DNA of 64,000 bases, from the NCBI GenBank assembly GCA_032718475.1, contig JAUCBJ010003176.1:6397-70396 (forward strand), read 5' to 3'. Of the stretch, positions 2,169 through 64,000 are shown one piece after another. Every line of letters starts with the position of its first letter. The first letter of the stretch is position 1. This stretch comes from Nemertoderma westbladi (lineage: Eukaryota > Animalia > Xenacoelomorpha). The position numbers and the translations under genes are program-made. Below the pieces are notes generated by a model. It saw only the letters and a list, made by a program, of their open reading frames with translations. It ran no database searches and was not told where the DNA came from.

Positions 2169-2227
2169 GTGACAGAACTAGATCCGCCCAGCTGCCCTGA
2201 CAGTGATAGACTGACACCAAAGGCGAG

Positions 2228-5200: not shown

Positions 5201-5619
5201 GGACTGCTAGTCCACAGTTAGCTGGTAGCAGGGCCACACCGTGGCAGGGACAGAAAGAAAATAACACCATAAATAAACACAATCCCAATATACCCAGTAG
5301 GCCGAGTCTAGACAACCAAAACATTAAATCGGTACATATAAACCTAAGCGCGATACGTGAAGGACTATACAGGAAACGCTATAATCCAGGATTCCAATGT
5401 CAATTACATCGGGACGGAACCCATAAGACCAGGAGTTGCAAGTACTGGCAAGCGTTGCCCAAACGAGATCGTGTAGCCTACACAGACGCAAACGGACTAT
5501 GTCATCGATGTGTGGTAAAAGGACACAGATCCGGAGAGTGTTGGAAAGGGAGAGGATATGAAAGGACTAAACCAGGGGCAGAGAAGCCCATTAGAAACAT
5601 AAGGGAGTCGGGAAAGTAG
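2228..5619 (+). pseudogene. Gag-like polyprotein split over three frames (ORFs 2228-2626, 2394-4214, 4156-5619)
   Basis: Charged coiled-coil N-terminus, Asn-rich tract, and C-terminal CQLH-x4-H-x4-C...LCHRC-x4-H-x4-C double knuckle with the spacing typical of BEL/Pao Gag. The second frameshift is in a G run that has one more G than its tandem duplicate at about 4055. Confidence 0.7.
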
Positions 5620-5969
5620 AAGGAGGCGTGTTGCATACACACGCAGGACGGACACAGTGCGAGGGGGCATTACATGGGCAGACACCGCGTATACCGAGGG
5701 ACGAGCGGGGGTCGTCGAGGGCTCTAATGCCAGCGCACATACGAAGGGGGAGGCCAGCAAAGGTAGCACCGAAGAGAGTGTGGCGAAGAGTTAGAGGACG
5801 TATAGGAGGGCAGCAGGAGAGTGCCTACTGGAAGAAGGGGCACCTGAGAGTTTTTAGTCGTCCAAAGTTTTGGACTGAGGGGGGTGGGAATGAGGGCGAG
5901 ACGCCCTTCCCACGCACAAAATATAAAATAATTATTTAATTAAAATTAAGAAAATAATTAAATAATAGA

Positions 5970-7790
5970 GTAGGTAGAAGTTAGGTAGTAAGAGTTAGTT
6001 AGTTAGTCAGTTAGTTAGTTAGTTAAAGAGGGTACGTAAGTACCGCTAGTTAGAGAGTTAGTAGGTACGTAGTACCTAATCAGAGTTAGAGTTAGTAGGT
6101 ACGTAGTACCTAGAGTTAGAGAGTTAGTAGGTACGTAGTACCTAGAGTTAGTTAGAGTTAGTAGGTACGTAGTACCTAATCAGAGTTAGAGTTAGTAGGT
6201 ACGTAGTACCTAGAGTTAGTTAGAGTTAGTAGGTACGTAGTACCTAATCAGAGTTAGAGTTAGTAGGTACGTAGTACCTAGAGTTAGAGAGTTAGTAGGT
6301 ACGTAGTACCTAGAGTTAGTTAGAGTTAGTAGGTACGTAGTACCTAGAGTTAGTTAGAGTTAGTAGGAGGGTACGTGTAGTACCGTTAGTAGAAGAGTTA
6401 GTAGGAGGGTACGTGTAGTACCGTTAGTAGAAGAGAGTTAGAGGGTACGTAAGTACCGCTAGTTAGTTAGAGATAGAGGGTACGTAAGTACCGCTAGTTA
6501 GTTAGAGTTAGAGGGTACGTAGTACCGATAGTTAGAGAGTTAGAGGGTACGTAGTACCGTTAGAGAGTAGGAGTTAAGGGGTACGTAGTACCGTTAGAGA
6601 GTTAATAGGAGTTAGAGGGTACGTAAGTACCGATTAGAGAGTAAGAGTTAGAGGGTACGTAGTACCGTTAGTTAGTGGAGTTAGAGTAAGAGTTAGAGGG
6701 TACGCAGTACCGTTAGAGAGTAGGAGTTAAGGGGTACGTAGTACCGTTAGAGAGTTAGTAAGAGTAAGAGGGTACGTAGTACCGCTAGCTAGTAGAGAGA
6801 GCTAGAGTAGTAAGAGGGTACGTAGTACCGCTAGTTAGGGGTGTTAGTAGTAGCAGTAGAGGGTTGTGGGCACCGTAAGCGCCACGTAGTTAGAGTTAGT
6901 AGGGAATGCGCTGAACTTAGTGGGGCACGGGCGTGATGATGTGTGTGATGTAAGAGCAGGGTATGTTAATTAGAGTTAGTGGGAGTTAGAGGTTAGTAAG
7001 AGGGTACGTAGTAGTACCGGTTGTGGTTGTGGGCACCGTTAGCGCCACGTAGATAGAGGTAGAGTTAGTAAGAGGGTACGTAGTACCGGTTGTGGTTGTG
7101 GGCACCGTTAGCGCCACGTAGAGAGTTAGTAGAGTTAGAAGGTGCCGTGCACAAGAGGTGCCGGGCACAAAAAGAGTTAGTAGAGTTAGAAGAGAGTTAG
7201 TAGAGTCAGTAGTAGTTCACATAATTAACGTACCCACTCTGCCGGCACTCAGAGCGTCACGTGTAGGCGATGAGACGTAAAGGGGATGTAGAGGAGTAGA
7301 GACGGGCACATAGGGTGCCAGAGAGTAGAAGAGTAGAGACGGGCACATAGGGTGCCAGGTAGTAGAGTAGAGTGTTAGAGGTAGTAGAGAGGGCACATAG
7401 GGTGCCAGGTAGTAGAGTAGAGCAGAGGGGGCACATAGGGTGCCAGGTAGTAGAGCTAGAGAGGTAGTTGAGTAGTAGAAGGGCACATAGGGTGCCAGAT
7501 AGTAGAGTGGTTGTGGGCACCGCAAGCGCCACGTAGTTAGTAGAGCTAGTTAGTAGAGTTAGTAGAGCTAGTTAGTAGAGTTAGCAGAGCTAGTGGAGTA
7601 GAGTTAGTAGAGCTAGTTAGCAGAGTTGGTAGACTCAGAGGAGTCAAGTAGAGTTAGTAGAAGTAGAAAGTTAGTAGAGAGTTAGAGTCAGTAGAAAGTT
7701 AGAGGCTCTCAGTTAGAGCTAGAAGTAGTAAGAGTTAGTAGTTAGTAGAGTCAGATAGTTAGAGTTAGTGAGCAGTAAGTAGATAGTATG
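5970..7790 (+). repeat. Internal purine-rich degenerate repeat region of the LTR element, with arrayed short hairpins
   Basis: Repeated taggtac-gta-gtaccta, ggtac-N3-6-gtacc and ggcac-atagg-gtgcc motifs between C-poor gagttagt(a) spacers. Confidence 0.85.
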
Positions 7791-8377
7791 ATAGCACAGG
7801 GGTAGCATTAGAGATTAAAGCCTTAGGGAGTGACAAGAGAGTGGAGAGGTGATAGTGCGGAGTGCGGAGTGAGTGGTGTAAGTACTATAGTCATACAACC
7901 TTTCTCAATTAGCTACTGGGACTGGGGGGCTAAGTGACTATGGCACTAGGGGCAAGACGCCAGACGATTTCACATTTCCTGAGTGCGACGGCACGGAGGG
8001 GGGGTGAGATTCGTCAGAAGGGATAAGGTAGTCAAGGAGGGATGGAGTAATAGTGCGGAGTGCGAAGAGAGCGTGGGCGCAATTCAAGTGTGGGGGAGGA
8101 GAAGTGAGAGGAAGAGTGTGGGACGAGGAGGTCCGGGAGTATGCGAGAGTTGGAGTAGAGTGGTGAGAGTGTTGGGGAAACAAAAATTGTGTGAGAGAAG
8201 CGCACGATCGGCCCGACACGAGACGCCAGAGGGTAGTGACATCATACCCATAGGGAGCGGCCTGGAAAGCCGACTCCGAAAAAAATATACCCACCCCACA
8301 CCCGATAATAGATCGGGATCCAGCGGAATTGTAGCGCACTTTAGTTGGATGCTATCTTCTTACCGGGAAGATAGCAT

Positions 8378-8386
8378 GGGGGGGAG
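8378..8386 (+). other. Polypurine tract (plus-strand primer)
   Basis: GGGGGGGAG directly before the TG of the 3' LTR. Confidence 0.85.
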
Positions 8387-8936
8387 TGTTAGCTTATCCA
8401 ATTCCGCTAACACAAACCCATAGAGTGAGCCATAAAGCAATATTGGGAGCACGAGGTTGATTACCAATCAACCTCGTGTCAGCCCAGTAAACGGGGACAA
8501 TAGGCCCCAAAGGAGACACACACAATAAGGGTCAGGGGTTACTCCCCTGACAAGAGAGAGAACAGCAAGGGCGAAGGGAAGCACTTCAGAGGGGGGCAAA
8601 GGGTGCCAACAGGGGTATCAACCAATCAGAGGGGGGAAAGGCATCGATTGAGTAGCAATAAGGCCACCGTGCAATATAACCAGTTACCAGTAATCATACC
8701 GGTCAGTTATTCAGTTTACTCAGTCAGATCAGTAGGGTGGAACGGGGACTTCTGTCACCGTCCGCTACCGCCATTATATATTACCTATTGTGTCATACTA
8801 TATTATATCAACTGTCAGACTATTATACCTTTATACATATTACCCAACATCAGAACTCTTTTACCTTTCACACACGGCGGGGACGCGTGGGCAGAAAACC
8901 CAAACGGATAAACCGGGATCCGTAGATCCCGTCACA
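8387..8936 (+). repeat. 3' LTR (550 bp)
   Basis: Direct repeat of 1619-2168, followed by the TSD GAGCT and resumption of the satellite unit. Confidence 0.95.
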
Positions 8937-10436
8937 GAGCTCGCTCGACCTAGTACTAGTATTTTGTATAGGATCCCATTTCCACTATCCGAGCGCGCTG
9001 GACCTAGTACTAGTATTTTGTATAAGATCCCATTTCCTCTGTCCGAGCTCGCTCGACATAGTACTAGTATTTTGTATAAGATCCCATTTCCTCTGTCCGA
9101 GCTCGCTCGACCTAGTACTAGTATTTTGTATAAGATCCCATTTCCTCTGTCCGAGCTCGCTCGACATAGTACTAGTATTTTGTATAAGATCCCATTTCCT
9201 CTGTCCGAGCTCGCTCGACCTAGTACTAGTATTTTGTATAAGATCCCATTTCCTCTGTCCGAGCTCGCTCGACATAGTACTAGTATTTTGTATAAGATCC
9301 CATTTCCACTGTCCGAGCTCGCTGGACCTAGTACTAGTATTTTGTATAAGATCCCATTTCCACTGTCCGAGCTCGCTCGACCTAGTACTAGTATTTTGTA
9401 TAGATCCCATTTCCACTGTCCGAGCTCGCTCGACCTAGTACTAGTATTTTGTATAAGATCCCATTTCCACTGTCCGAGCTCGCTGGACCTAGTACTAGTA
9501 TTTTGTATAAGATCCCATTTCCACTGTCCGAGCTCGCTCGACATAGTACTAGTATTTTGTATAAGATCCCATTTCCTCTGTCCGAGCTCGCTCGACCTAG
9601 TACTAGTATTTTGTATAAGATCCCATTTCCACTGTCCGAGCTCGCTTGACCTAGTACTAGTATTTTGTATAAGATCCCATTTCCTCTGTCCGAGCTCGCT
9701 CGACATAGTACTAGTATTTTGTATAAGATCCCATTTCCTCTGTCCGAGCTCGCTCGACATAGTACTAGTATTTTGTATAAGATCCCATTTCCTCTGTCCG
9801 AGCTCGCTCGACCTAGTACTAGTATTTTGTATAAGATCCCATTTCCACTGTCCGAGCTCGCTCGACCCAGTACTGTTAGTATTTTGTATAAGATCCCATT
9901 TCCACTGTCCGAGCTCGCTCGACCCAGTACTGTTAGTATTTTGTATAAGATCCCATTTCCACTGTCCGAGCTCGCTCGACCCAGTACTGTTAGTATTTTG
10001 TATAAGATTCCATTTCCTCTGTCCGAGCTCGCTGGACCTAGTACTAGTATTTTGTATAAGATCCCATTTCCACTGTCCGAGCTCGCTCGACATAGTACTA
10101 GTATTTTGTATAAGATCCCATTTCCTCTGTCCGAGCTCGCTCGACCTAGTACTAGTATTTTGTATAAGATCCCATTTCCACTGTCCGAGCTCGCTTGACC
10201 TAGTACTAGTATTTTGTATAAGATCCCATTTCCTCTGTCCGAGCTCGCTCGACATAGTACTAGTATTTTGTATAAGATCCCATTTCCTCTGTCCGAGCTC
10301 GCTCGACATAGTACTAGTATTTTGTATAAGATCCCATTTCCACTGTCCGAGCTCGCTCGACCTAGTACTAGTATTTTGTATAGATCCCATTTCCACTGTC
10401 CGAGCTCGCTCGACCTAGTACTAGTATTTTGTATAG
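8937..10436. repeat. 54-bp tandem satellite, right part
   Basis: Same unit as 1-1618, resuming at gagctcgctcgacc. Confidence 0.97.
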
Positions 10437-26175: not shown

Positions 26176-26303
26176 GTAGCGGAGCGAGCTCTGTACTATT
26201 GGAATAACGAATACATAATGAGTCTTATAGAAGAGAACTGTTACAACATATTACCTATAATGTTTCCGTCGTTATATAAAGTATCTAAGGAACATTGGAA
26301 CCA
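26176..26303 (+). CDS. PPP2R5: PP2A B56 exon C1 (128 nt; first alternative)
   Basis: ccccag|GTA...CA|gtgagt; [42 protein letters not shown](Q). Confidence 0.95.
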
Positions 26304-26744
26304 GTGAGTCTGTGGTTGAGGTCCCTCCTTATTTACCTTGGTGTTATATCCTTTCTGGTTATATGTTATATACCTTTTGGTTATATGTTATATAGTATCT
26401 ATGTTTATTTATATTAAGATCAAGTGATTGGTCAGTGTTATAATACCATTTCTGTCTTTCATTTTTCTCTTACGTCTTTCATATGCCTCACAGTATATTA
26501 GGACATAACCATACTCTTATATTCCGCCCGAATATTTATTTACTTCCCTATAATGCATTGTGGTTGTCCTTCACGTTAGAACTCATTCGATTACAGACGT
26601 AAGGTTTCTGAAGTTTGTTACCAATGTTACTGAACATACATTAGCTACCACAATAGCTACTGGACAATTCGGTTACTGCACCTATATTGGCTAGATTTAT
26701 ACATCTGTTGCGTTGGAAAAATTGTATGCATTATGGTTGTCGTG

Positions 26745-26939: not shown

Positions 26940-27067
26940 GTAGCGGAACGAGCGCTCTATTACTGGAACAACGAATACATCGTACAAAACTTAGAGGAAA
27001 ATGGGACAGAACTAATGCCCCTTCTGTTCCCAGCTTTGTACAAAATATCCAAGGAACATTGGAACGC
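26940..27067 (+). CDS. PPP2R5: PP2A B56 exon C2 (128 nt; duplicated alternative)
   Basis: tgccag|GTA...GC|gtgagt; [42 protein letters not shown](A); same length and phases as C1, no stop codon. Confidence 0.9.
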
Positions 27068-27399
27068 GTGAGTGATAGTTGCAGATCATTAGATTCAATT
27101 AGAATTAACATGAACTGATCAGAGTCATATAATATGACTTTAATTAACATGAACTCATCAGAGTCATATAATATGACTTTAATTAACATGAATTGGACTG
27201 TTCGTTATTTAGCTTATTGGCAGCAAAAAAACACATAATTTCGAAATGATAACACCACCAACCACTTAGTGGGTGAGCCAGAATTTTTATTTTTTGCTTT
27301 TAATCTTTAGCTACAAGCGTTTAAAAAGTGTCTCTTTCGATATTGTACCACTCCCTCCGCAGTTATTCTTCAACCTTATAGCGAGTTGTTGGTACTGAT

Positions 27400-30441: not shown

Positions 30442-30794
30442 GAATCGAGAGCATAGTGAAAATATGTTTGATATTTAGCATACAATTAGAGTTAGATTGA
30501 TATGCATCGTTGACAGTTGCCTGCTGTCGACTGTCTGTTGTCGGCTGTCGGTTGTCTGTTGTCGGCTGTCGGTTGTCGGTGTAGTATTTACATCCGGGAG
30601 TTGTTAGTTTACATTTGGAATGATTATTTATAAGTTCAGGATAAGAATATCTTTCGAATATGTGTTGGATACGGTTTGTTTAATAAAACAAACTTGTTTA
30701 ATGCAAGTCTGCATCAATCACATACAGCGCCTGGGTCTATAGCAATAGTGTTAACCGAAATCCCGTCCATCTTCAGGATTTCATCTCTGGATAT

Positions 30795-32175
30795 GGATTG
30801 TTTTCGGCTGGAACCCAGTTCAAGAAGCGAACTGGAAAGCTATGGACTCATAGTGGACCCAGTGGTCACAAGTCCCAGATAGACCATATTCTCTTTCGTA
30901 GGAAATACAGGAGCTCTATACGAGACTGTAATGCATTTACACTTCGACCCTTCTCCAGTGATCACCGCCTTATTGTGGCCAAGGTGAGACTTAGTCTGCG
31001 TGCTAGCAGAACAACGAAATCTGCCTTGCCGCGGCATGACTGGTCCTCTCTGTTGCAACAGCCACGCGTGAGATCCAGCTTCACACTACAGCTGAGCAAC
31101 AGGAGGTATGAGGTTCTTGCCTCTGAGACAACAGTTCACTGCGAGGGCTATACTGCCTTGGAAGAAGCAGTTAACTTTGCAGCTGCAGAAACAGTTCCTG
31201 TATACTCTCGAAACAAAGGACCCTGGACGGACCACAAAATTCGGAAGTGCCAAAATGACCTCTATAAGGCGGAGAAAGAGTCCCGACTCAAACAGACTAC
31301 AGCGGCCAAGAATGCAGATAAGGCTGCATCTAGTTGCTACTCTGTTATTCTACAGGAGCTAATAAACCATCAGGGTTAAGGCAGAATCACCTTGAATCAC
31401 TTTGAAAAGCTCCTCAATAATGACAGGGTATTGCCTGATAACTTTATAGAAGTAAAGGTGTCTGAGTCTGTACTCCCAGATATTCCCATTGGCGATATCT
31501 CCTTTGCAGAAGTGAAGGCTGCTGCAAAGAGCATTAAGACCAATCGTGCCAGTGGAGTAGATGGTGTTCCCTCTGAGGTCTTTAAAATACCTGAGTGTTT
31601 GAAGCTCATTTATCCCATCATAGTAGACATGTACAGAACAACAAGAGTCCCACAAGAAATGAAAACAAATAAGTTGGTGCCAGTTCCCAAGAAGGGCAAC
31701 CTAACACTCTATGGTTCTTTTCGGGGCAATCTCATTGATTTCGATTGCTGCAAAGCTATACAATATAATTGTATTAAATCGCATCAGGGATCCCATTGGG
31801 CTCCGTGGAAATCAGAATGGGTTCCGTAAAGGTCGTGGGACCATGGAGCCCATTTTGGCACTTCGAAGGATAATTGAAGAGTTATCATAAATGAAAGACT
31901 GGCATCTGGCAGCTGGCTGTTATCTTTGCTGACTTCTTCAAGGCCTTTGATTCACTATGTTCTACGCATGTCCTTTGATCATCATAATGATGATGGGGTG
32001 ATGGTAACACACCTACTGGCTCCAGAAGACGAGGAAATCATGGAGTGAATAAGCATGGTGGGCAGCCCATGACTTTCTTTGAGACGCATCTTAAAGGACA
32101 CTGGCCTTGAAGATGCGGATAATCTAGCAAATGTCATGGGTGATAGGGAGTTGTGGCGGCGCACTTTTGTCGACA
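30795..32175 (+). mobile_element. Decayed, internally deleted RTE-clade LINE (end of endonuclease, start of RT, C-terminus)
   Basis: WTHSGPSGHKSQIDHIL...SDHRLIVAKV (APE), RASGVDGVPSEVFK, LVPVPKKGNL, NQNGFRKGRGT, IFADFFKAFDS, and C-terminal DRELWR; several frameshifts and stops. Confidence 0.88.
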
Positions 32176-39180: not shown

Positions 39181-41820
39181 TCAAGGTCCCTGAGGTTTAG
39201 GACTTAATTCTTCATGGAACAACTCACAGTAATCCTCAGTGTCTTTGAACAGAGCCACTTGGGTGTTGGAGTTGCACGGCTGTTTCTTGAAGGAACACAC
39301 GTTGAGATGGGATCCGGCGATGGCCGTATAAATATAGAAAACGTCCTGGAATTTGGGGTTCATTGTGCGGCTCTCCCATTTCGAAGAGTCGCTGTCTTCC
39401 AAATGCAGTACGCCCTCATCGGTGTGGATGGTATACACGTCGCTGAGTCCGAAATGGGTTGGTTGCACGTCGCTGGAGGCCTCGCAATGTCTGTCGGAGT
39501 TTGGGAGACGTTTAGTGTGAGAGTTCGATATGGAGACCAGACAGGTGACCCCAGCGTCTGTTTTTATGGTAGCGCACATATCATCTTTAGCTGCTATATT
39601 GGTGGTACTAGTAGATTCAACTGTAACACAAATATGGTACTTCTGGTTTGGTTGATATTTCGCATTAAAGTCAGCGATACGATATAAATAATGGTTCCTC
39701 TTCTCCGAAGCTTCAAACTTAACAACAGTTGGTTTTTCCAGAGTAGCGAAGTGGTGCAATGTAAAACGCTTTCCTTCTAAATCTTTGTCATTATTCGCTT
39801 TGAAGCTCAGAAAGTTGCCATGGAAACTGATAACTTTAATTGGGACAAATTGTGACTCTTTAACTTGTAGGCCTAACTGTATTGTTGACTGAACGCTCGA
39901 GGACTTAGCTCCCTTAGTAAGTCCCAGCAATGTTTCCGAATACGTAATGTTGTAGGAATACTCACCAGAATCTACTGGGAACTGCGGTTCAATATAAAGT
40001 ACGTCTCGCGTTTCATTACGAACTTTAATACGTCGACGTCTCTGACTTGGGATGGATGTATCGTTTACAATGACGCCGGATGGTAAAGTGAAGTTAAACT
40101 CTTGGGGAACCGGTAATTGAGGATATCGGGTCGCTGTAATTTCCATTCGCTTAGACTTGGAGGAATCGGGTTCGATGTGATTGTGAGACGCTGTTATTTT
40201 ATTAATTTTAGGTAAAGTGCATATCGCCTCCAGACCCCGGGACTCCTTCGTCTTGAACTTGTATTTAACAAATTCGTCGATTTGATGGACGAGAATTCCT
40301 TTTAGTTCCGGGGGTTCAGAACAGCGAGCCTTCAGAGCTAAGGATTTTTTCACAAACTTTTTGTATGCCGGGTAAAAGTTGCAGTCGCAGGTCAATGCAT
40401 TGTTGAATAATGTAAGAATGTAAATGTGTTTTAATACTTCTTCTGTTAAAAGTTTTTCTATGTTAACAGATGTTATTTTATTATTATTAAGATACAGCTC
40501 TGTAAGGGTTTCACCTTTAAATGCATTATCATCTATTGTGCTGATCTCATTGTGGCTGAGATCTAGGATCTTTAGGTTAGGGTAACCGTGAAACTGTTTT
40601 GGATGTACCTTCTTTATTAAATTGTGAGCCAAATGAAGGAACCTCAGCTCGGGATACGATGACGTGGTTGGTGCGTTTAAACTGATCTTATTTTTTGTGC
40701 AGTTGAGGCTGCGGAGATTATCTAATTTAACTGAACTATCAAGATAACTCGTCAACTCGTTATTAGAGAAATCCAGAACCGTTAGTTGTGGATTAGTTTT
40801 CATAAACGCTACTGGTAGAGATTTCATACCAGCACTATTGTAACTTACAGTCCATATTTGATGGGAAGCTGTAGTCTTCAAAAAATCGCCTTCACTTTGT
40901 AAGCCGTTCAAACGATAAGTTTTAATCTGAGCGCCAAAATTTTCATTCATCTTTTCTGATACTTTATAAGCCGTCCAGGACAGATCTACAATATTGAGCT
41001 TGGGGAGATCACCCGTGGCTTTACCAATAGCTCCATGGATAACTGACGAATCTAACTTTTTATTTCCCCTTAGAACGATATCTCGAATACCTTTAGTGTA
41101 ATCATCACGTGGATCCCTCAAACAATTACTTTCCAGCTCCTCAATCTCCATAAATGGAAGATTCAATTCTATAACAGGCATCATTGAGGTCGTGTGATCC
41201 TTTGTAAGTCGTCGTTTATCTTTTGCCAATGTGTTGTAACCAGCTTTTAGAACCAATTTACCAGCGTTTCCAGATTTGTGTTTGTAGCCCTTAAATCCAC
41301 GAGATATCTGATAGAAGTCATTGATTTGGTTGTGATCTAAATACAGGATAAACAGCCTAGGGGTGGCAGGAGTGAAGGAACCCGGTTCAATAGAGTGAAT
41401 GGAATTACCTGTCAGGTGCAGAAAATATAACTTCGGCATGGAAGTAAACCAAGTCGATTTAACTTTAGAAATCGTGTTGTACGAGAGATCCAATTCTTCT
41501 AAATTCTGTAGACTAGAAGCGGCTAAAGTGGGATTGAATTCTTTTAAAGAACTCCGAGTGATTTTGAGCACAATGAGAGTATTCTTTCCAACGGTTTCGT
41601 CGTCAGATAGATGCGTTATAACGGTGTTGGTGAGTTTGATGACTATAACAGTGTCACTTAAACCCAACGGGAACTCAGCAATATGTCTTCCCTCTTGCCC
41701 ATCGCATTCAACCATATCAGTTATACAGGTGTCCTTGCAGAATCGACTTAAACAGGTGTACGTAGCATCCACAGATATAAGTAGGCAATAAGCCAGCAGT
41801 GTATGCAGTATTTTTGACAT
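39181..41820 (-). CDS. Intronless secreted leucine-rich-repeat protein (signal peptide, LRRNT, LRRs, LRRCT, Ig-like, FN3-like, extra C-terminal domain), 879 aa from ATG 41820
   Basis: MSKILHTLLAYCLLISVDA signal-like start; LxxLxLxxNxI repeats; NALTCDCNF...CSEPPELKG cap; DSGEY Ig motif; QPNQKYHICV FN3-like motif; uninterrupted 2.6-kb non-repetitive ORF. Confidence 0.88.
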   Translation of the reverse strand: MSKILHTLLAYCLLISVDATYTCLSRFCKDTCITDMVECDGQEGRHIAEFPLGLSDTVIVIKLTNTVITHLSDDETVGKNTLIVLKITRSSLKEFNPTLAASSLQNLEELDLSYNTISKVKSTWFTSMPKLYFLHLTGNSIHSIEPGSFTPATPRLFILYLDHNQINDFYQISRGFKGYKHKSGNAGKLVLKAGYNTLAKDKRRLTKDHTTSMMPVIELNLPFMEIEELESNCLRDPRDDYTKGIRDIVLRGNKKLDSSVIHGAIGKATGDLPKLNIVDLSWTAYKVSEKMNENFGAQIKTYRLNGLQSEGDFLKTTASHQIWTVSYNSAGMKSLPVAFMKTNPQLTVLDFSNNELTSYLDSSVKLDNLRSLNCTKNKISLNAPTTSSYPELRFLHLAHNLIKKVHPKQFHGYPNLKILDLSHNEISTIDDNAFKGETLTELYLNNNKITSVNIEKLLTEEVLKHIYILTLFNNALTCDCNFYPAYKKFVKKSLALKARCSEPPELKGILVHQIDEFVKYKFKTKESRGLEAICTLPKINKITASHNHIEPDSSKSKRMEITATRYPQLPVPQEFNFTLPSGVIVNDTSIPSQRRRRIKVRNETRDVLYIEPQFPVDSGEYSYNITYSETLLGLTKGAKSSSVQSTIQLGLQVKESQFVPIKVISFHGNFLSFKANNDKDLEGKRFTLHHFATLEKPTVVKFEASEKRNHYLYRIADFNAKYQPNQKYHICVTVESTSTTNIAAKDDMCATIKTDAGVTCLVSISNSHTKRLPNSDRHCEASSDVQPTHFGLSDVYTIHTDEGVLHLEDSDSSKWESRTMNPKFQDVFYIYTAIAGSHLNVCSFKKQPCNSNTQVALFKDTEDYCELFHEELSPKPQGP

Positions 41821-41895
41821 TATAAACTTCAAAGGTTATATAGGCCGACACCATATAGATAATCGAACTTTCGAAATATATTTACAGTTTAGGTA

Positions 41896-43749: not shown

Positions 43750-46700
43750 AAAAACATGTGACTAAAAGAACCTCTCCAAGTACTCAATATATCAGACACA
43801 ATATTAACGAAGGACCAGATAAACTTGTTAAAAAGGGGCCTAACCTTTACTCCCACACCTAGAGACAATATGATAGAAGCAAAAGCAGATATACATAGAT
43901 TTGCAATGAAGTCAAATTTCCATGCTAATCTTAAAGTAAACTCTGTGAATTCCAATAATCAATCCCTCATATACGGGAAAACGAGATATTAATTATGTAA
44001 CCAGGGGAAACAACTCAACATTAGACGCGTGTTGATATGCTGTCATCTATTTCACCAGATTTAAACAAAATTAAAGACTTCAATCTAAGTATAAATGAAA
44101 GGAAATCTCTAAATGATTTGAGAATTAATGTCTAGTTTAGTTTAGTTTATTTCGCCACACATGTTAAAATACATAAATACAACAAACAATTATACCTGGC
44201 ATCAACTTATAAATACGCTACTGCGTGTTACACGGGATTGTTGCTAAATAATAATATACACGGGAAATAAAATTATTACACAATTATACAGTAGGTTTTC
44301 CACTGTTTAAAAAATTAAAATAAGTACAATTATTATTATTATTGCACTCAAAATACACCTAATGGTGTACATCATCAAAAAGATAATTAATTTCTCTTTT
44401 AGTTGAAAATATGATGAAATGAAAATTACAATTACACTCAAAATACGATATACAATAAAATCACGTAAAATAAAATAAAATAAATCAGTACTTTCAGTAC
44501 TTTGTACAGTCTGACCGTGTCAGTCTGCATCTTCACTTTGTGTATTAGTACCTTGTACCAATAAACGATTTACTTGTGGTACCGTGTACCATTTATTTGT
44601 TTGAATATTGCCCGTCTGACCGTGTCAGTCAACCTTTATTTGTGATAGCGGTACCGTGTACCGTCTGTACGGTGTACAGCTCAAGAATGGATTATTGGGG
44701 CATTTGAAATTCTGAAACACAGCGTTTGTAGGGTCCAATGAGATGAATGAATGTATGAGAACTTGGCATTCTTCCCAGCTGACAAAGGTGGTGCAATAGT
44801 AGTAATGAATACAACCGATTATGAAAAAATGGTAGATGTTCACTAATATGATTCTAAAACTTATGATAAAATTAATACATGCAAGGATACAGCTGTTCAT
44901 AAAGAAATTGGTACTCTTTGTAATAAGTATAAGGACAATTTGACTCCTACTGAATACAAACATATTACGAATGACCAGTACAAGTAAAGTCATATTTACG
45001 TTCTTCCAAAAATTCATAAATGTAGCGAATTAAAAGATAACGCTGATGAAATTAGAGATGGATACTTACATACTAAATTGTCAACAGACATTCCATCGAG
45101 ACCTATCATCTTAAGTGTAGACTCTCCCACATCCAAGTTGTCAGCTCTGATAGATGAGGTAATCAAGCCTATGGTACCTACTTTTCCTAGTTACATCAGA
45201 GACACTAAGCATTTTTCGAACACTTTACCCCAGAGCATAGATGAAAATGAAAATTTTGTCAGTTTTGATGTAACATCTCTTTATACAAATATACCACACA
45301 ATGAAGGAATCGCTGCATTAGCATATTGGCTAAACCAAAAACGTAATTTACTTCAAGAACGTTTTACCAACGATTTTATTATGGACGCCATCACCATTAT
45401 ACTTAAAAGTAATTATTTTGCACATATACATACAACGACTGGAAAGTATTATTTACAATTAGAAGGGACAGCCATGGGGACTAAATGCGCATCGAACTAT
45501 ACAAATTCATACATGGCGCATAAAGAAGTTATTATTGCGGAAAAAATATATACGGAGAATTGGAAAGCGAAAAATTCAAAAAGAACTGGAAAATATTGTT
45601 AGATGACTTTTTCACCAAATGGAATATAAACGGCCGATAACAGTAACAGGTCTACATGACTTAATAAACAGTATTAACCCAAATATCCAATTCACCATGG
45701 AACAAAGCCGAATGAAATTGCCATTTTTGGATGTTATGGTACATAGTCAACAACGCAAGTAGGATTGAGTGTGACATATTTCACAAACCGACTGACTCTA
45801 GGCGGTATCTTGATTACATATCTTGCCATCCTTCCCACATACTGCGTGACATTCCACCAAACCTTGCATGCAGGGTGTGTATGATTTGTAGACAACGAGA
45901 ACAAAAAATTCCAAAGATTATACGAATTTAATTTTAAGATTTATAAAATTGATCTGATTCGCTGCAACGATCCCATAGGACTAATTAATAGAGCAATTGA
46001 AGAAGCCTCTAGAAGACCCAAATCTGAATTACGGGGGGGGACAAACAAAGGCATCGAAAACCCATTTTTCCTTGTGTTATCACACACAACCCCAACATAA
46101 ATTGCCACATAAACATTAAATTGAAACCAATATTCAGAATAATGTCAGAAAAAACACCCAGGGGTTATAGTCTAAATGATAAACAAGTTATTATTGCCAG
46201 GAGACAACCACCGTCGCTAAGAACTACATTAAAAAGAAAACCCAAACCACAAGGATTACCTGGATCAAAGAAATGCGAAAATAAAAAAGGAACTTGCGAA
46301 ATTTGTGACGTCATAGGGGTAGTCACTGCAGTTAAATTCAAAAACTCAGAAGAACTTTTCACCATTCGGCACAGATTGAACTGCAACAGTACGAATGTAA
46401 TTTATGTAATGACGTAATGATGACGTAATGACGTGTGAAGGAAGCAAAGAGGATTATATTGGACAAACAATGAACTTTAGACATCGAACTAATCTACATA
46501 AAAACCACATACGTGACAGGAGCCAAAAACAAATGAAATGCAGCGAGCACATTAAAAATTGTCTGAGGGGAAAATTTACCATAACGCCTTTTTTTTAAAT
46601 GCCCATATGATGACTTGCCATTACTACTAACGTATGAAGACCATTTCATAAACTTATTTAAGCCTTCATTGAACTGTTAAAAAAGAGGGGTAATCCCCAA

Positions 46701-47150: not shown

Positions 47151-47364
47151 TCTTCTGGTGAGGCACTTTTGTCTTTTGCAGTTCTCTTTCATTAATTAAG
47201 TATTAAGTTATTCATTTTTTTTTTATGTGGGATGTATATTTAAAAACATTTTTTTTGTCTAAATTATTCAGAAATACGAAAATAATTATTTTTACCATGA
47301 AATTTAAGATCTTTTAATACTGTTTTATTATTGTATGAAAATTTTTGCATTTGTATTAAACTGA

Positions 47365-47826
47365 CATATATAAGGAGCTGAAAGAGTCCCGACTCAAACA
47401 GACTACAGCGGCCAAGAATGCAGTTAAGGCTGCATCTAGGTCCCTGAACAGGCAGTACTCTGTTAATCTACAGGAGCTAATAAACCAACAGGTTGATGCC
47501 ATCAATGATGCCAACGACAGCAGGCAATCATCCCAGGCATGGAGATCGATCAACTTGCTTGCTGGTCAAAAAAGCCAACCAACCACCAAGGTTAAGGCTG
47601 AATCACCAGCCGATTGCCTCAATGGTTGGAAGGCCCACTTTGAAAAGCTCCTCAATAATGACAGGGTCATGTCTGATAACTTTATAGAAGTAAAAGTGTC
47701 TGAGTCTGTACTCCCAGATATTCCCATTGGCGATATCTCCTTTGCAGAAGTGAAGGCTGCTGCAAAGAGCATTAAGACCAATCCTGCCAGTGGAGTAGAT
47801 GGTGTTCCCCATGAGGTCTTTAAAAG
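47365..47826 (+). mobile_element. RTE LINE fragment, same family as 30795-32175
   Basis: Near-identical HFEKLLNNDRV...ASGVDGVP segment; retains sequence deleted from the 31.3-kb copy. Confidence 0.88.
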
Positions 47827-48540
47827 TTCTACTACACTACAAGTCATCAGACCTGTTCCACTACACTATTGATTACCCCGACCTGTTCCAATAGACTACT
47901 ACTTACCCCGACCTGTTCCACTACACTACAATTCACCAGAGCTGTTTCACTACACTATTACTTACCCCGACCTGTTCCAATATAGTACTACTTACACCTA
48001 CCTGTTCCACTACACTACAACTCACCCAGACCGGTTCAACTATACTATTACTTACCCCCGCCTGTTCCACTACACTACAACTCACCTAGACCGGTTCCAC
48101 TACACTACTACTTATCCTGAGCTGTTCCACTACACTAGGACTCACCCTTACCTGTTCAAACTACACTATTACTTACCCCGACCTGTTCCACTATACTACA
48201 ACTCACCAGACCTGTTCCACTACACTATTACTTACCCCGACCTGTTCCATTACACTACAACTCAACTAGACCGGTTTCACTATACAATTACTTTCCTCAA
48301 CCTGTTCCACTACACTACAACTCACCAGACCTGTTCCACTACACTATTACTTTCCCCGACCTGTTCCACTACACTTCTACTTACCTCGACCTGTTTCGAT
48401 GCACTACAACTCACCCAGACCGGTTCCAATACACTACTACTTACCTCGACCTAGTCCACTACAGCATTACTTACCCGGACCTGTTCCACTACACTACGAC
48501 TAACATAGACCTGTTTCACTACACTATTACTTACCCGATC
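47827..48540. repeat. ~30-bp degenerate tandem repeat, block 2
   Basis: Same units as 46891-47150, alternating between two subtypes. Confidence 0.85.
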
Positions 48541-54933: not shown

Positions 54934-55452
54934 TTTTTTACTTAACTTGGTTTAGGAATTAAAATTAAACAGCATATCCTTTTAACACGTGTTAACTTCC
55001 GAATTAGTTGTTAGGAGCTTCAGGGCTACACTGTTGGTCCAGTTCTAAAACTGACAGGACCATAGGCAGAGTTAAAAAAAAAGAGAGGGCCGGATTTCAA
55101 AATGCCCCGATCGAGATAATTTAATCCAAAAAATATCAATGTGTTTTGTGTCCCTGGTGTATAATTTTTTGAAAATTTAAAATTTTAGGATGGCTAAAAA
55201 TTAAATTACAAAAAAAAAATATACATCACTATGTATAACTGTAATATTAAAGTAATGAAAAGTAAATAACTATGCAATAGAAGTAGTAGTTTTCTTATAT
55301 ACAATTGCTGCATATAAATAATAAGGGAAAGTTATATAATTTAAATTTATTATCGATGGCGATAGTAGTATGATAGACATAGAAAGTAATAATACAAAAA
55401 TTAATATTAAAATTTAACCAATTTTTATTTGTCTCATAGGTGTTGATCCTCT

Positions 55453-56200
55453 AGCCCCCCCCCGCTGGCGCCCCTGTCGGCGGCGCCCCCATCGGCGGCG
55501 CCCCCATCGGCGGTGCCCCCTTCGACGTTGCCCCTGTCGCCGCCCCCATTGGCATTGCTCCTGTCGCCGCCCCCGTCGGCGTCGTTCCCGTCGGCGTCGT
55601 CCCCGTCGGCGGTGCCCCCGTCGGTGGCGCCCCTGTCGGCGGCGCTCCTGTCGGCGTCGCCCCTGTTGCCGCCCCCGTTGGCGTCGTTCCCGTCGGCGTC
55701 GTCCCCGTCGGCGGTGCCCCCGTCGGTGGCGCCCCTGTCGGCGGCGCTCCTGTCGGCGTCGCCCCTGTTGCTGCCCCCGTCGGCGTTGCCCCTGTCGCCG
55801 GCCCCGTTGGCGTCGCCCCTGTTGCCGCTCCCATCGCTGTCGCCCCCATCGCCGCCCCCGTCGGCGTCCCCCCCGTCGCCGCCCCCGTCGGCTTCGCCCC
55901 CGTTGCCGCCCCCGTTGGCATCCCGCCCGTCGCTGTCCCCGTCGGCGTCGCCCCCATCGCCGCCCCCATTGCCGCCCCCGTTGCTGCCCCCGTCGACGCC
56001 CCCATCGGCGCCACCCCCGTTGGCGTTGCCCCCGTCGCCGCCCCCCTAGGCGCCGCCCCCGCCGCCGCCCCCATTGGCGCCCCTTCCGCCGCCCCCGTCG
56101 GCATTGCCCCCATCGGCATCGCCCCAATCAGCGCCCCCATCGGCGCCGCCCCCATCGGCGTTGCCCCCGTCGCCGCCCCCATCGGCGCCGCTGCCGACCG
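55453..56200. repeat. GC-rich degenerate 12-15-bp repeat (gcccccgtcggcg...)
   Basis: Very high GC island in AT-rich surroundings; open in several frames because of composition. Confidence 0.85.
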
Positions 56201-56588
56201 GCTGGATGTTGGACCGGAATTGTAATTCTAAGAGGACTATAATTTTCTTTTTGAATCCGCCCCGTGGTGTCGTTTTGTGTCTTTGTTTCTTTGTATTATC
56301 TTTACTATTATTGGTATTGTGGTGGTCAATTATTTTCCGAAGAATCGGCGAAAGGAGTAGAATATTTGTAATGTAAATATCTTGTGATAAAGTTATTAAG
56401 TTGTCTTAGGCATATTTGTGTATATCATGTACGTATAAGATGTTTCATCGAAATATATAACATAAATAAATTTAAGGTCGTGGTGGGGAGGGCTGCTATG
56501 TCTCATATGATTGAATAATTAATTTAGCTGTACTTGTTCTCAAATTCTATTTATATATTTATTATTTAAATTTAACTTATTATTTTCG

Positions 56589-59500
56589 ACAGTATCTCAG
56601 TAACTAGAAGTCGGTGTTACACATTAATTGCTATACAGTATCTCGGTAACTAGAAGTCAGTGTTACACATTAATTGCTATACAGTATCACGGTAACTAGA
56701 AGTCGGTGTTACACATTAAATGCTATACAGTATCTCGGTAACTAGAAGTCGGTGTTACACATTAATTGCTATACAGTATCTCGATAACTAGAAGTCGGTG
56801 TTACACATTAATTGCTATACAGTATCTCGGTAACTAGAAGTCGGTGTTACACATTAATTGCTATACAGTATCTCGGTAACTAGAAGTCGGTGTTACACAT
56901 TAATTGCTATACAGTATCTCGGTAACTAGAAGTCGGTGTTACACATTAATTGCTATACAGTATCTCGGTAACTAGAAGTCGGTGTTACACATTAATTGCT
57001 ATACAGTATCTCGGTAACTAGAAGTCGGTGTTACACATTAATTGCTATACAGTATCTCGGTAACTAGAAGTCGGTGTTACACATTAATTGCTATACAGTA
57101 TCTCGGTAACTAGAAGTCGGTGTTACACATTAATTGCTATACAGTATCTCGGTAACTAGAAGTCGGTGTTACACATTAATTGCTATACAGTATCTCGGTA
57201 ACTAGAAGTCGGTGTTACACATTAATTGCTATACAGTATCTCGGTAACTAGAAGTCGGTGTTACACATTAATTGCTATACAGTATCTCGGTAACTAGAAG
57301 TCGGTGTTACACATTAATTGCTATACAGTATCTCGGTAACTAGAAGTCGGTGTTACACATTAATTGCTATACAGTATCTCGGTAACTAGAAGTCGGTGTT
57401 ACACATTAATTGCTATACAGTATCTCGGTAACTAGAAGTCGGTGTTACACATTAATTGCTATACAGTATCTCGGTAACTAGAAGTCGGTGTTACACATTA
57501 ATTGCTATACAGTATCTCGGTAACTAGAAGTCGGTGTTACACATTAATTGCTATACAGTATCTCGGTAACTAGAAGTCGGTGTTACACATTAATTGCTAT
57601 ACAGTATCTCGGTAACTAGAAGTCGGTGTTACACATTAATTGCTATACAGTATCTCGGTAACTAGAAGTCGGTGTTACACATTAATTGCTATACAGTATC
57701 TCGGTAACTAGAAGTCGGTGTTACACATTAATTGCTATACAGTATCTCGGTAACTAGAAGTCGGTGTTACACATTAATTGCTATACAGTATCTCGGTAAC
57801 TAGAAGTCGGTGTTACACATTAATTGCTATACAGTATCTCGGTAACTAGAAGTCGGTGTTACACATTAATTGCTATACAGTATCTCGGTAACTAGAAGTC
57901 GGTGTTACACATTAATTGCTATACAGTATCTCGGTAACTAGAAGTCGGTGTTACACATTAATTGCTATACAGTATCTCGGTAACTAGAAGTCGGTGTTAC
58001 ACATTAATTGCTATACAGTATCTCGGTAACTAGAAGTCGGTGTTACACATTAATTGCTATACAGTATCTCGGTAACTAGAAGTCGGTGTTACACATTAAT
58101 TGCTATACAGTATCTCGGTAACTAGAAGTCGGTGTTACACATTAATTGCTATACAGTATCTCGGTAACTAGAAGTCGGTGTTACACATTAATTGCTATAC
58201 AGTATCTCGGTAACTAGAAGTCGGTGTTACACATTAATTGCTATACAGTATCTCGGTAACTAGAAGTCGGTGTTACACATTAATTGCTATACAGTATCTC
58301 GGTAACTAGAAGTCGGTGTTACACATTAATTGCTATACAGTATCTCGGTAACTAGAAGTCGGTGTTACACATTAATTGCTATACAGTATCTCGGTAACTA
58401 GAAGTCGGTGTTACACATTAATTGCTATACAGTATCTCGGTAACTAGAAGTCGGTGTTACACATTAATTGCTATACAGTATCTCGGTAACTAGAAGTCGG
58501 TGTTACACATTAATTGCTATACAGTATCTCGGTAACTAGAAGTCGGTGTTACACATTAATTGCTATACAGTATCTCGGTAACTAGAAGTCGGTGTTACAC
58601 ATTAATTGCTATACAGTATCTCGGTAACTAGAAGTCGGTGTTACACATTAATTGCTATACAGTATCTCGGTAACTAGAAGTCGGTGTTACACATTAATTG
58701 CTATACAGTATCTCGGTAACTAGAAGTCGGTGTTACACATTAATTGCTATACAGTATCTCGGTAACTAGAAGTCGGTGTTACACATTAATTGCTATACAG
58801 TATCTCGGTAACTAGAAGTCGGTGTTACACATTAATTGCTATACAGTATCTCGGTAACTAGAAGTCGGTGTTACACATTAATTGCTATACAGTATCTCGG
58901 TAACTAGAAGTCGGTGTTACACATTAATTGCTATACAGTATCTCGGTAACTAGAAGTCGGTGTTACACATTAATTGCTATACAGTATCTCGGTAACTAGA
59001 AGTCGGTGTTACACATTAATTGCTATACAGTATCTCGGTAACTAGAAGTCGGTGTTACACATTAATTGCTATACAGTATCTCGGTAACTAGAAGTCGGTG
59101 TTACACATTAATTGCTATACAGTATCTCGGTAACTAGAAGTCGGTGTTACACATTAATTGCTATACAGTATCTCGGTAACTAGAAGTCGGTGTTACACAT
59201 TAATTGCTATACAGTATCTCGGTAACTAGAAGTCGGTGTTACACATTAATTGCTATACAGTATCTCGGTAACTAGAAGTCGGTGTTACACATTAATTGCT
59301 ATACAGTATCTCGGTAACTAGAAGTCGGTGTTACACATTAATTGCTATACAGTATCTCGGTAACTAGAAGTCGGTGTTACACATTAATTGCTATACAGTA
59401 TCTCGGTAACTAGAAGTCGGTGTTACACATTAATTGCTATACAGTATCTCGGTAACTAGAAGTCGGTGTTACACATTAATTGCTATACAGTATCTCGGTA

Positions 59501-62104
59501 ACTAGAAGTCGGTGTTACACATTAATTGCTATACAGTATCTCGGTAACTAGAAGTCGGTGTTACACATTAATTGCTATACAGTATCTCGGTAACTAGAAG
59601 TCGGTGTTACACATTAATTGCTATACAGTATCTCGGTAACTAGAAGTCGGTGTTACACATTAATTGCTATACAGTATCTCGGTAACTAGAAGTCGGTGTT
59701 ACACATTAATTGCTATACAGTATCTCGGTAACTAGAAGTCGGTGTTACACATTAATTGCTATACAGTATCTCGGTAACTAGAAGTCGGTGTTACACATTA
59801 ATTGCTATACAGTATCTCGGTAACTAGAAGTCGGTGTTACACATTAATTGCTATACAGTATCTCGGTAACTAGAAGTCGGTGTTACACATTAATTGCTAT
59901 ACAGTATCTCGGTAACTAGAAGTCGGTGTTACACATTAATTGCTATACAGTATCTCGGTAACTAGAAGTCGGTGTTACACATTAATTGCTATACAGTATC
60001 TCGGTAACTAGAAGTCGGTGTTACACATTAATTGCTATACAGTATCTCGGTAACTAGAAGTCGGTGTTACACATTAATTGCTATACAGTATCTCGGTAAC
60101 TAGAAGTCGGTGTTACACATTAATTGCTATACAGTATCTCGGTAACTAGAAGTCGGTGTTACACATTAATTGCTATACAGTATCTCGGTAACTAGAAGTC
60201 GGTGTTACACATTAATTGCTATACAGTATCTCGGTAACTAGAAGTCGGTGTTACACATTAATTGCTATACAGTATCTCGGTAACTAGAAGTCGGTGTTAC
60301 ACATTAATTGCTATACAGTATCTCGGTAACTAGAAGTCGGTGTTACACATTAATTCCTATACAGTATCTCGGTAACTAGAAGTCGGTTTTACACATTAAT
60401 TGCTATACAGTATCTCGGTAACTAGAAGTCGGTGTTACACATTAATCGCTATACAGTATCTCAGTAACTAGAAGTCAGTGTTACACATTAATTGCTATAC
60501 AGGATCTCGGTAACTAGAAGTCGGTGTTACACATTAATTGCTATACAGTATCTCGGTAACTAGAAGTCGGTGTTACACATTAATTGCTATACAGTATCTC
60601 GGTAACTAGAAGTCGGTGTTACACATTAATTGCTATACAGTATCTCGGTAACTAGAAGTCGGTGTTACACATTAATTGCTATACAGTATCTCGGTAACTA
60701 GAAGTCGGTGTTACACATTAATTGCTATACAGTATCTCGGTAACTAGAAGTCGGTGTTACACATTAATTGCTATACAGTATCTCGGTAACTAGAAGTTGG
60801 TGTTACACATTAATTGCTATACAGTATCTCGGTAACTAGAAGTCGGTGTTACACATTAATTGCTATACAGTATCGGTAACTAGAAGTCGGTGTTACACAT
60901 TAATTGCTATACAGTATCTCGGTAACTAGAAGTCGGTGTTACACATTAATTGCTATACAGTATCTCGGTAACTAGAAGTCGGTGTTACACATTAATTGCT
61001 ATACAGTATCTCGGTAACTAGAAGTTGGTGTTACACATTAATTGCTATACAGTATCTCGGTAACTAGAAGTCGGTGTTACACATTAATTGCTGTACAGTA
61101 TCTCGGTAACTAGAAGTCGGTGTTACACTTTAATTGCTATACAGTATCTCGGTAACTAGAAGTTGGTGTTACACATTAATTGCTATACAGTATCTCGGTA
61201 ACCAGAAGTCGGTGTTACACATTAATTGCTATACAATATCTCGGTAACTAGAAGTCGGTGTTACACATTAATTGCTATACAGTATCTCGGTAACTAGAAG
61301 TCGGTGTTACACATTAATTGCTATACAGTATCTCGGTAACTAGAAGTCGGTGTTACACATTAATCGCTATACAGTATCTCGGTAACTAGAAGTCGGTGTT
61401 ACACATTAATCGCTATACAGTATCTCGGTGACTAGAAGTCGGTGTTACACATTAATTGCTATACAGTATCTCGGTAACTAGAAGTCGGTGTTACACATTA
61501 ATTGCTATACAGTATCTCGGTAACTAGAAGTCGGTGTTACACATTAATTGCTATACAGTATCTCGGTAACTAGAAGTTGGTGTTACACATTAATTGCTAT
61601 ACAGTATCTCGGTAACTAGAAGTAGGTGTTACACATTAATTGCTATACAGTATCTCGGTAACTAGAAGTCGGTGTTGCACATTAATTGCTATACAGTATC
61701 TCGGTAACTAGAAGTCGGTGTTACACATTAATTGCTATACAGTATCTCGGTAACTAGAAGTCGGTGTTACACATTAATTGCTATACAGTATCTCGGTAAC
61801 TAGAAGTCGGTGTTACACATTAATTCCTATACAGTATCTCGGTAACTAGAAGTCGGTTTTACACATTAATTGCTATACAGTATCTGGGTAACTAGAAGTC
61901 GGTGTTACACATTAATTGCTATACAGTATCTTGGTAACTAGAAGTCGGTGTTACACATTAATTGCTATACAGTATCTCGGTAATTAGAAGTCGGTGTTAC
62001 ACATTAATTGCTATACAGTATCTCGGTAACTAGAAGTCAATGTTACACATTAATTGCTATACAGTATCTCGGTAACTAGAAGTCGGTGTTACACATTAAT
62101 TGCT
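56589..62104. repeat. 46-bp tandem satellite (about 120 copies)
   Basis: Unit acagtatctcggtaactagaagtcggtgttacacattaattgctat; homogeneous core with variants toward both edges. Confidence 0.97.
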
Positions 62105-62490
62105 GTTGGATTTATCAATAGACCAATTCCACCATTGCCACTATCATCTGCTGACGCGAGGGCGAGTCGCCAACCGCCCCCCATGTCCTTAATCAGAACC
62201 TCATCAGTCTGTCCAGTCTGCATTCGGTGCTCTTGAACACCCACTGCGTTAAGAGAAAGCTTATCTGCCAAGGCAGTCAGCTCACCTTGTCGCATTGGGG
62301 ACCCGAGTGTTAGGGTGTTTACTGAGGCTAGTCTAGTGACTTGCCTTAGATTCACCAATGGCTTTGTTGGTCGGGGTGGAACATGAGAGTAGCTTCCAAC
62401 TCCAGAATCCCTCTCCCCATCACAATCTGGCCTCCCTGGCCAGAGCCCTGGGCCAGGGCCCTCCCTAGCATACCTCGGCTCTAACAACCC
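62100..62490 (-). mobile_element. 5' fragment of an RTE-type LINE (start of APE endonuclease)
   Basis: RLASVNTLTL, AVGVQEHR and GNGGIGLLIN are APE motifs I-III; the 3' part is cut off by the 46-bp satellite. Confidence 0.8.
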
Positions 62491-63184
62491 AGAAGGTAAT
62501 CTACCACCAATCAGTCGAAGATCTTACAATTCTGTGGACGACGAAGCAATTAGCGTTAGCGAGCAGATACTCTCTACTTTCAGCCCCAGTATTGGGGATG
62601 AGTTCATTAGCATGTAGGAGGCGATGTTACGCCCTGTCGCGTCCTATATGTATAACCAAAACGATGGCGTCACTGTTCTGCCAATAATAACCACCGAGAC
62701 CATCGATGGGAAGAATGCAAGAATGATCCACGGTGCTGTTATCAAGGGCCCCGCTCATCTGACAAGTGATTCATCTAAGTTGCCTTTAATCGTATTCCAA
62801 ATGATAGATCGATCAGTAGCTGAGAAGGCCAAAGAGGTCTATCACGATTCTACATTGTTCCACTATAAAGAACCTGAGGGTATAAGGAATGATATTTTGG
62901 TGGTCTGCTACCGTCTAGGGTTGTGGCCAGTAAAAATTTGACATAATCGTGGACTGTCGAGAGTGCGAATCCAAACAGCTAGCATCGTACATGCTCGGGC
63001 TATGTAGATAATAGAGTCAGATGGAATCACCAACTGGGAGGAGTATCTTCCTAGTACTTTAACCAAACTCAGGAGTATAGCAAGACTGATTCATGCCGAG
63101 AATAAACTCTTGGCTGTTTGCAATAATAACGAACTTGAGGGTTTCCTCGCTAACTTTAGACGGATTTACATAATGGGCCGCTAG
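62490..63184 (+). pseudogene. Endogenous viral element: orthomyxovirus-like (Articulavirales) polymerase acidic subunit PA, C-terminal domain
   Basis: One frame with stops at 62615, 62939, 63005 and 63182. DGVTVLPIITTETIDGKNARMIHGAVIKGPAHLTSDSSKLPLIVFQM and NNNELEGFLANFRRIYI align by eye, in order, with recalled influenza PA segments [48 protein letters not shown] and ASPQLEGFSAESRKLLL. Confidence 0.8.
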
Positions 63185-63654
63185 GAACAATTATGATAAA
63201 TATATAAATTGAAGTGAATATACTAAAAGAACTAACCTCTCTTTTGTGGTAGGTGTCAAGTCATTTAAAGTTTGTGTCATATCTGAGTCATCTTCAATTG
63301 CATCTGTAGTGGTAGACATGGTAACCTGTGAAGTAGTGTTGTCTGAAATGCCATTTAGATGTCACTTGTCATTTTAAAGTGATTTGTAGTCACATCTGAT
63401 TGTGTTTTATTGACATAAATAAATATTTGTTAAAGTCATTATTTTGAAACAGAGTGGAATGAGATTAAAATGATGAAAAATAAAAATATTTCAAACATGG
63501 GTATATCTTTGGAACCATATATCACCGTTATAACAAAACAGGTTTAGCTCTCAATATACCAAAATTTTCCAAAACTAATATTCAATAAAATGGGGTAATT
63601 TGTTTTTAAAATAATGGTATTGTTCTAGAATGGTAGCTATTTTTCTAAAACATG

Positions 63655-64000
63655 TCAGTTTTCATTTAGCAGCATTCCCATGGTAACAGTAATTATATTC
63701 CAGAATTTTATGTCACATTTAGAATTGTTAGACCAGTAGCTATCTTTTTCAAAAGATGCGATGAATTTATATTGAGTTATTAGAATACTACAGCATGTTT
63801 GTTGTTTTATCATTTCCATGACAACCGGTGATAACACCAAGTCAGCTACTGATTTAGATTTGTTATCATATCAAAATGAATGGCCAGAAGCTAGGTCTTC
63901 CCAAAAATATAAGTTCCGGGTGGTTACCAAAAAGAATCCCCTATGCTGGCTGGCCCATGGACTAATACAGTCCCACTCGCCAACAGAGTGCCATCGGATC
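63655..64000 (-). pseudogene. Possible degenerate WD40-repeat fragment
   Basis: SDGTLLASG, NLYFWE, VADLVLSP and DIKFWNI across two frames with stops; runs off the window end. Confidence 0.3.

Follow-up and report, generated by a model that had tools for sequence, protein, structure and literature searches.

A probable endogenous PA gene fragment of an undescribed orthomyxo-like virus in animal genomic DNA

Part of a PA polymerase gene, derived from an undescribed orthomyxo-like virus and called the fragment below, was found at 62471-63178 (+) of the window, the name used here for the whole 64,000-nucleotide stretch of DNA that was analysed. We hold it to be, quite probably, a non-functional endogenous viral element that was likely inherited and was likely made by a host LINE reverse transcriptase copying viral RNA into the germline. 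Its identity as the PA C-terminal domain of a virus of the Articulavirales was confirmed by sequence and by predicted fold. Viruses of this group are segmented, negative-stranded and replicate in the nucleus. The host is likely an invertebrate.

The fragment was delimited with BLASTP and phmmer and comprises about 236 codons in one frame. Translation of 62393-63181 (+) through the stops (written as X) yielded a single frame, interrupted three times by stop codons (62615-62617, 62939-62941 and 63005-63007, all +); an earlier note on this DNA, made from the letters alone, had described the frame in the same way. The middle piece, which it gave as 105 aa, measures 107 aa from stop to stop and about 105 from the ATG. 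Two motifs were located where they had been placed before, IKGPAHL at 62741-62761 (+) and ELEGFLANFRR at 63131-63163 (+). Across 15 aligned PAs, H122 of the first motif is invariant and G119 and P120 are nearly so, and E249 and R256 of the second are nearly invariant. Residues 206-262, which hold the second motif, alone gave 51.5 bits against the PA profile. The bounds given earlier (62490-63184) had to be shifted, as homology begins at about 62471 (residue 27 of the translation) and extends to 63178. The stop codon that closes the frame (63182-63184) belongs to a host repeat starting at 63181 and not to the viral gene. The GC content is 44% in the fragment versus 32% in the right flank. The fragment corresponds to residues 384-607 of the 674-aa PA of Xinjiang sediment orthomyxo-like virus 1 and breaks off before the C-terminal end. 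A whole PA subunit has an N-terminal endonuclease domain and a PB1-binding extreme C terminus; both were absent from the window by profile search.

The best match among 1.84 billion representative proteins was the Xinjiang virus (phmmer, E 7e-20, 28-31% identity). The PA of dog whelk orthomyxo-like virus (E 3e-12) was the other of the best named matches, and unnamed environmental proteins were also among the best. Fourteen representatives matched at E ≤ 0.001, of which 10 lie above the Pfam Flu_PA cut-off, three lie below it and one is without a family. Pairwise BLASTP with the Xinjiang PA gave 28% identity over 236 columns (E 6e-30; query residues 27-262). The earlier note had held a better match to a cellular or transposon protein to be one of the outcomes that would speak against a viral origin; none was found among the named matches. 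A sequence search of solved structures returned three matches, all of them orthomyxovirus PA: two 622-aa chains of Thogoto virus (8z85 and 8p0b; E 6e-7 and 7e-7) and an influenza D chain (E 0.009).

Comparison with the Pfam Flu_PA profile, proposed earlier as a check, was only partly favourable. Flu_PA was the sole family matched, and the score of 13.5 bits (E 0.021) is under the 23-bit cut-off of this influenza-centred profile (PF00603), under which the fragment is not filed; a full-length relative (P0006) likewise fell under the cut-off, with 16.9 bits. Against a profile of six PAs (thogoto-like viruses and Goettingen virus) the fragment scored 75.1 bits, shuffled versions 6.0 or less (651 of 1000 reported) and the reversed sequence -3.7, in a control that is not fully independent because the six PAs had been found with the fragment as query. 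All four stop-bounded pieces matched the PA profile in order (82.6, 51.5, 6.3 and 5.9 bits), and residues 1-24 of the translation gave no match to it. In a six-frame profile search of the window, PA was detected nowhere but at the fragment. No relative was returned by a word-based protein search of the fragment against longer proteins, by a word-based search of the alignment against proteins of 1181-3370 aa (a length range that leaves out normal PAs), or by locus scans of viral contigs and metagenome contigs.

A structure of the fragment was predicted with a mean pLDDT of 78.7; the model was built from the alignment of PA relatives and is therefore not independent of the sequence match. Structure search retrieved Thogoto PA (E 6e-11). 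Structural alignment with this PA gave Z 17.0 and an rmsd of 5.5 with 237 aligned, and the top five rows were all orthomyxovirus PA; influenza PA was also matched. Weaker fold matches were to bunyavirus L proteins (Z 7.6-10.7), and the best non-viral row had Z 6.2. Among predicted viral structures, the dog whelk virus PA ranked first (TM 0.72) and the PA of Wenling orthomyxo-like virus 1 fourth. The PA-C fold, with which the earlier note had proposed a comparison, is present in the predicted model, and its assignment to the PA C-terminal domain is backed by this fold together with the Xinjiang, whelk and Thogoto sequence matches.

The PA tree contained 15 rows, with influenza, quaranja, isavirus and amnoon rows left out. 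The fragment was placed on the same side of a 98/96 branch as eight relatives (a side of nine rows), with no resolved position within it. Identity ranges from 23 to 30% with those eight relatives and is 18-20% with Goettingen virus and five thogoto-like PAs. Grouping with the five thogoto-like PAs was rejected by the tree test (p-AU 0.018), and membership of that group was discarded; grouping with these five plus Goettingen virus was not rejected (AU p 0.27). Pairing with the Xinjiang virus had a support of 67/39, and pairing with the whelk virus was not rejected (AU p 0.13). The Xinjiang and whelk viruses share the fragment's side of the 98/96 branch but are only 28-29% identical to it over about 225 columns, and they are RNA sequences with uncertain hosts, whereas the fragment has decayed and forms part of a genome assembly. 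Thogotovirus PA (Thogoto, Bourbon, Sinu and Varroa orthomyxovirus-1) is the closest solved-structure match by sequence and fold, yet just 18-20% identical. Judged by its sequence, the lineage of the fragment is less than 30% identical to anything found. The suggestion of an undescribed Articulavirales lineage stands at the species or genus level; the lineage is not isolated, however, as its nearest named relatives form a published, mostly aquatic orthomyxo-like group.

Parts of this group have been described before. In the sections available of one report, the whelk virus groups with acoel, salmon louse and comb jelly sequences, subject to a caveat on contamination (PMC10101049). The name 'Metamyxovirus' was proposed on the basis of PB1 for a clade of aquatic viruses whose hosts include a whelk, lizardfish and marine flatworms (PMC10636315, Petrone et al. 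2023), and the virus of the whelk host in that clade is presumably the dog whelk orthomyxo-like virus. As far as the available text of Petrone et al. goes, data of this kind do not allow the hosts to be verified, and their candidates included no endogenous elements (PMC10636315). The description of the whelk virus itself rests on RNA and includes negative-strand small RNAs of 26-30 nt (10.1101/166488; correction PMC7051039). An endogenous origin is named as a limitation in the portion seen of Leung et al. (PMC12277240), and a ctenophore virus of the same family is reported from embryos (10.64898/2026.08.30.748148). Two short PA-like proteins, P0008 (254 aa) and P0009 (163 aa), lie on contigs of 180,179 and 125,271 bases, respectively. 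They pair at 96/92 beside the whelk virus in the PA tree and may be endogenous fragments in other genomes.

Seven sequencing runs were listed, six of them of organism A. Runs X1 and X2 are from sample S1 of study P1, and X3 is from sample S2 of study P2; the DNA label of the runs is presumed, and one of the two samples may be the source of the window. On the left, the fragment is neighboured by the 5' portion of a LINE-like repeat of very high abundance (62101-62439, -), which contains the start of an AP-endonuclease-like frame. An endonuclease of the AP type is a trait of LINE elements. The piece is cut at both ends, with its 5' side toward the PA fragment. Its summed contig depth was 5e5-1e6 in X1 and X3, and other copies continue past 62101 and 62439. 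Atlas features pointed to Exo_endo_phos (score 0.94, 180 of 256 shared), a lead without an E-value, and no match was obtained for the piece in Pfam or the PDB. Its far cut end adjoins a tandem array of 120 copies of 46 bases (56589-62104). The left junction zone spans about 30 bases (62440-62470); here the depth in X1 dropped from 97,941 at 62431-62461 to 104 at 62462-62492, and two X3 contigs depart from the window at 62466. The right flank (63181-64000) consists of one or more AT-rich dispersed repeats of middle abundance (X1 depth 2e3-1.5e4), other copies of which differ before 63181. No telling inverted or direct repeats were found at the junctions.

A further copy of the LINE-like piece, with five differences, lies on a contig of 2356 bases in run X5, which carries the label organism B. 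This copy may stem from mislabelling, contamination, a close relative or transfer. X5, presumed to be RNA, covered the repeat parts only.

Among the pieces listed (24 of 524 and 26 of 5504), no contig bridged either junction, and the linkage of the PA fragment to its flanks therefore rests on the assembly of the window. Both junctions lie in repeats, as might result if viral RNA-derived or foreign sequence had been misjoined to host repeats, by assembly chimerism or contamination. Such an artefact is very improbable, since RNA viruses have no DNA stage, and near-identical and diverged versions of the fragment recur, with decay, in two samples of two studies. An endogenous origin, as proposed by the earlier note, is backed by the assembly context, in which viral coding sequence is contiguous with host DNA, and by the decayed versions in runs of both samples. 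The window copy shows its decay in three stops, and elsewhere copies have gaps or an internal joint.

The PA stretch was fully covered by X1, X2 and X3 (30 of 30 bins); X4 (organism A) and X6 gave no cover of it, which at their shallow depth carries no weight as to absence or expression. At least four versions of the stretch were distinguished, at about 0-4%, 8-12%, 16% and 21% from the window, with contigs joined into versions across regions by depth only. The near-identical version showed 0/91, 1/104, 0/124, 4/180 and 4/95 differences and the 8-12% version 37/337, 22/180 and 11/134. The 16% version had 18/110 differences, and the 21% version had 50/239 and an internal joint (62757-63107). 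One-base gaps occur in other copies at 62572 and 62821. Several contigs, the longer ones measuring 918-2248 bases, run on with other letters beyond the junctions, and loose ends lie at 62466, 62519 and 63178.

Codon positions were counted for the 40 best supported of 109 difference rows; two ambiguous rows were dropped and one doubled position was counted once. Among the rows listed, 23 of 30 between-version differences fell at the third codon position (binomial p 1.5e-6), compared with two of the seven that set the window apart from every X1 contig (Fisher p 0.025). Because the former cluster at third positions and the latter do not, the versions would likely have diverged as coding strains of a virus and then have been integrated separately. 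Had there been one old integration, duplicated later, with versions diverging as neutral host DNA, differences should be even across codon positions instead of 23 of 30 at the third, and copies 11-21% apart would not be expected to align nearly gap-free. This history is improbable, although every version overlaps one and the same portion of PA (the compared stretch being that portion only), the flanks are repeats, which favours duplication, and duplicated viral inserts are described by Li et al. and Russo et al. in the passages available (PMC4384744, PMC6580184).

Selection after integration would account for the third-position bias equally well, if a PA-C-like domain had been co-opted as a host gene family under purifying selection and the window held a broken allele. 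Two of the stops are indeed peculiar to the window copy. The fragment lacks its own start, however, and repeats truncate it on either side; in other copies the frame is broken by gaps, or an internal joint is present, and a look-up of three open pieces found none of them recorded as a called protein. Co-option is accordingly quite improbable. Two of the seven window-peculiar differences sit in stops 1 and 2, within whose codons the window differs from all aligned X1, X2 and X3 contigs, and these stops are therefore recent or allelic. The non-functional state is shown for the window copy only, as stops 1 and 2 are missing from all aligned contigs.

For the preferred origin, separate integrations of related viral strains, a sequence of events can be proposed. 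A nuclear-replicating, segmented negative-strand virus would have infected the germline, the enzyme of a retrotransposon would have copied parts of its PA segment more than once, and the copies would have decayed after integration. Read on the minus strand, antisense PA lies at the 5' side of the LINE piece, which is the arrangement expected if the enzyme had left the LINE RNA for a viral template of negative sense. We tentatively infer from this that a LINE template switch onto negative-sense viral RNA may have produced the PA-LINE arrangement. A later insertion of a 5'-truncated LINE gives an identical picture. The 3' part of the LINE is missing, cut off at the tandem array. A search of the window for this 3' end, a poly(A) tail, a target-site duplication and the second half of the right repeat found none of them, and the LINE may therefore have landed later. 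Other viral segments, PB1 included, were not detected among 118 open frames of at least 62 aa outside the tandem arrays of the window, a search that short decayed pieces would escape.

Objects of this kind are known from ticks and insects, PA included; the lineage and the presence of several versions are new. Orthomyxovirus inserts are reported in Ixodes, Bombyx and Melitaea, with repeated independent integration (PMC4384744), and in the firefly Photinus pyralis (PMC6191289). Those of Chilo suppressalis include one from PA (PMC12810003), and non-LTR retrotransposons are given as enriched two-fold near the inserts of Ixodes scapularis (PMC6580184). In the parts of these reports that were available, the elements of Ixodes, Chilo, Bombyx and Photinus are, like the fragment, partial polymerase-gene inserts. 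Tick and most moth inserts are described there as quaranjavirus-like and the moth ones as 49-77% identical to known viruses, in contrast to less than 30% for the fragment. The PP2A B56 gene of the window, moreover, had no close insect match. No endogenous element of the whelk/'Metamyxovirus'-like group was reported in the literature searched; the supplements of screens for endogenous viral elements could hold one. It is possible, though rather doubtful, that the host is a member of some thinly sampled animal lineage outside the arthropods and repeatedly captured PA from an undescribed, diversified genus-level branch of the Articulavirales.

The value of the find lies in the lineage and the host. 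The deep history of influenza-like viruses rests on transcriptome sequences, the hosts of which are unverified according to the authors, as far as the available text of these papers goes (PMC10636315, PMC10101049, PMC12277240). An inherited insert would link a virus lineage with its host free of such doubt, and its age could be judged from which populations and sister species carry it or lack it. If the host and the repeated capture are as just supposed, no earlier germline record of the whelk/'Metamyxovirus'-like group would exist, and a dated history of infection would replace transcriptome associations that are prone to contamination. Several versions with differences mainly at third codon positions would document the strain diversity of a never-sequenced virus, and the fragment, antisense and heading a LINE, would be a candidate for producing antiviral piRNAs outside arthropods. 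Should P0008 and P0009 prove similar, such fossils would be a recurring feature.

The rest of the window is animal genomic DNA, with spliced PP2A B56 exons, a leucine-rich repeat (LRR) gene, retroelements and long tandem arrays. One PP2A B56 exon showed 72-85% identity among the best 120 of 1415 matches. Three exons of this gene were 70-80% identical to those of molluscs, insects, vertebrates and others, the vertebrate rows being mostly alpha isoforms. In a PP2A B56 tree the gene had a long branch (0.45 versus a median of 0.064) and a weak link to a mite (77/87), with no supported neighbour. One exon is present in two diverged tandem copies, at 26176-26304 and 26940-27068 (+), each with an AG before it and a GT donor in the same phase, which suggests that they are likely spliced in a mutually exclusive manner. 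Just past the last PP2A exon found, the LRR gene (39184-41835, -) has an 884-aa open frame with leucine-rich repeats and likely Ig-like parts, and its search returned generic families only. A weak match to IDO at 38617 was dismissed as low-complexity noise.

About half of the window consists of long minisatellite arrays with units of 13 to 54 bases and lengths of up to 8.4 kb, several of them within introns. A very recent LTR retroelement (1619-8937) lies inside a 54-base tandem array. Its two 551-base terminal repeats are 100% identical, and 5 bases are duplicated at its ends. The element has gag-like frames, in which a zinc knuckle was weakly matched, but no pol was found, and it is likely non-autonomous. 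Two pieces of one LINE-like family (30700-31830 and 47360-47830, +) are 83-96% identical, and the LINE-like piece next to the PA fragment did not match this family. A decayed reverse-transcriptase element at 44700-46420 (+) has a weak RVT_1 match followed by a cysteine-bearing frame, which we take to resemble the GIY-YIG end of Penelope elements. An exon-like, GC-rich frame of about 256 aa, rich in Pro, Ala, Val and Gly, occupies 55441-56227 (+) and ends to the left of the 46-base array.
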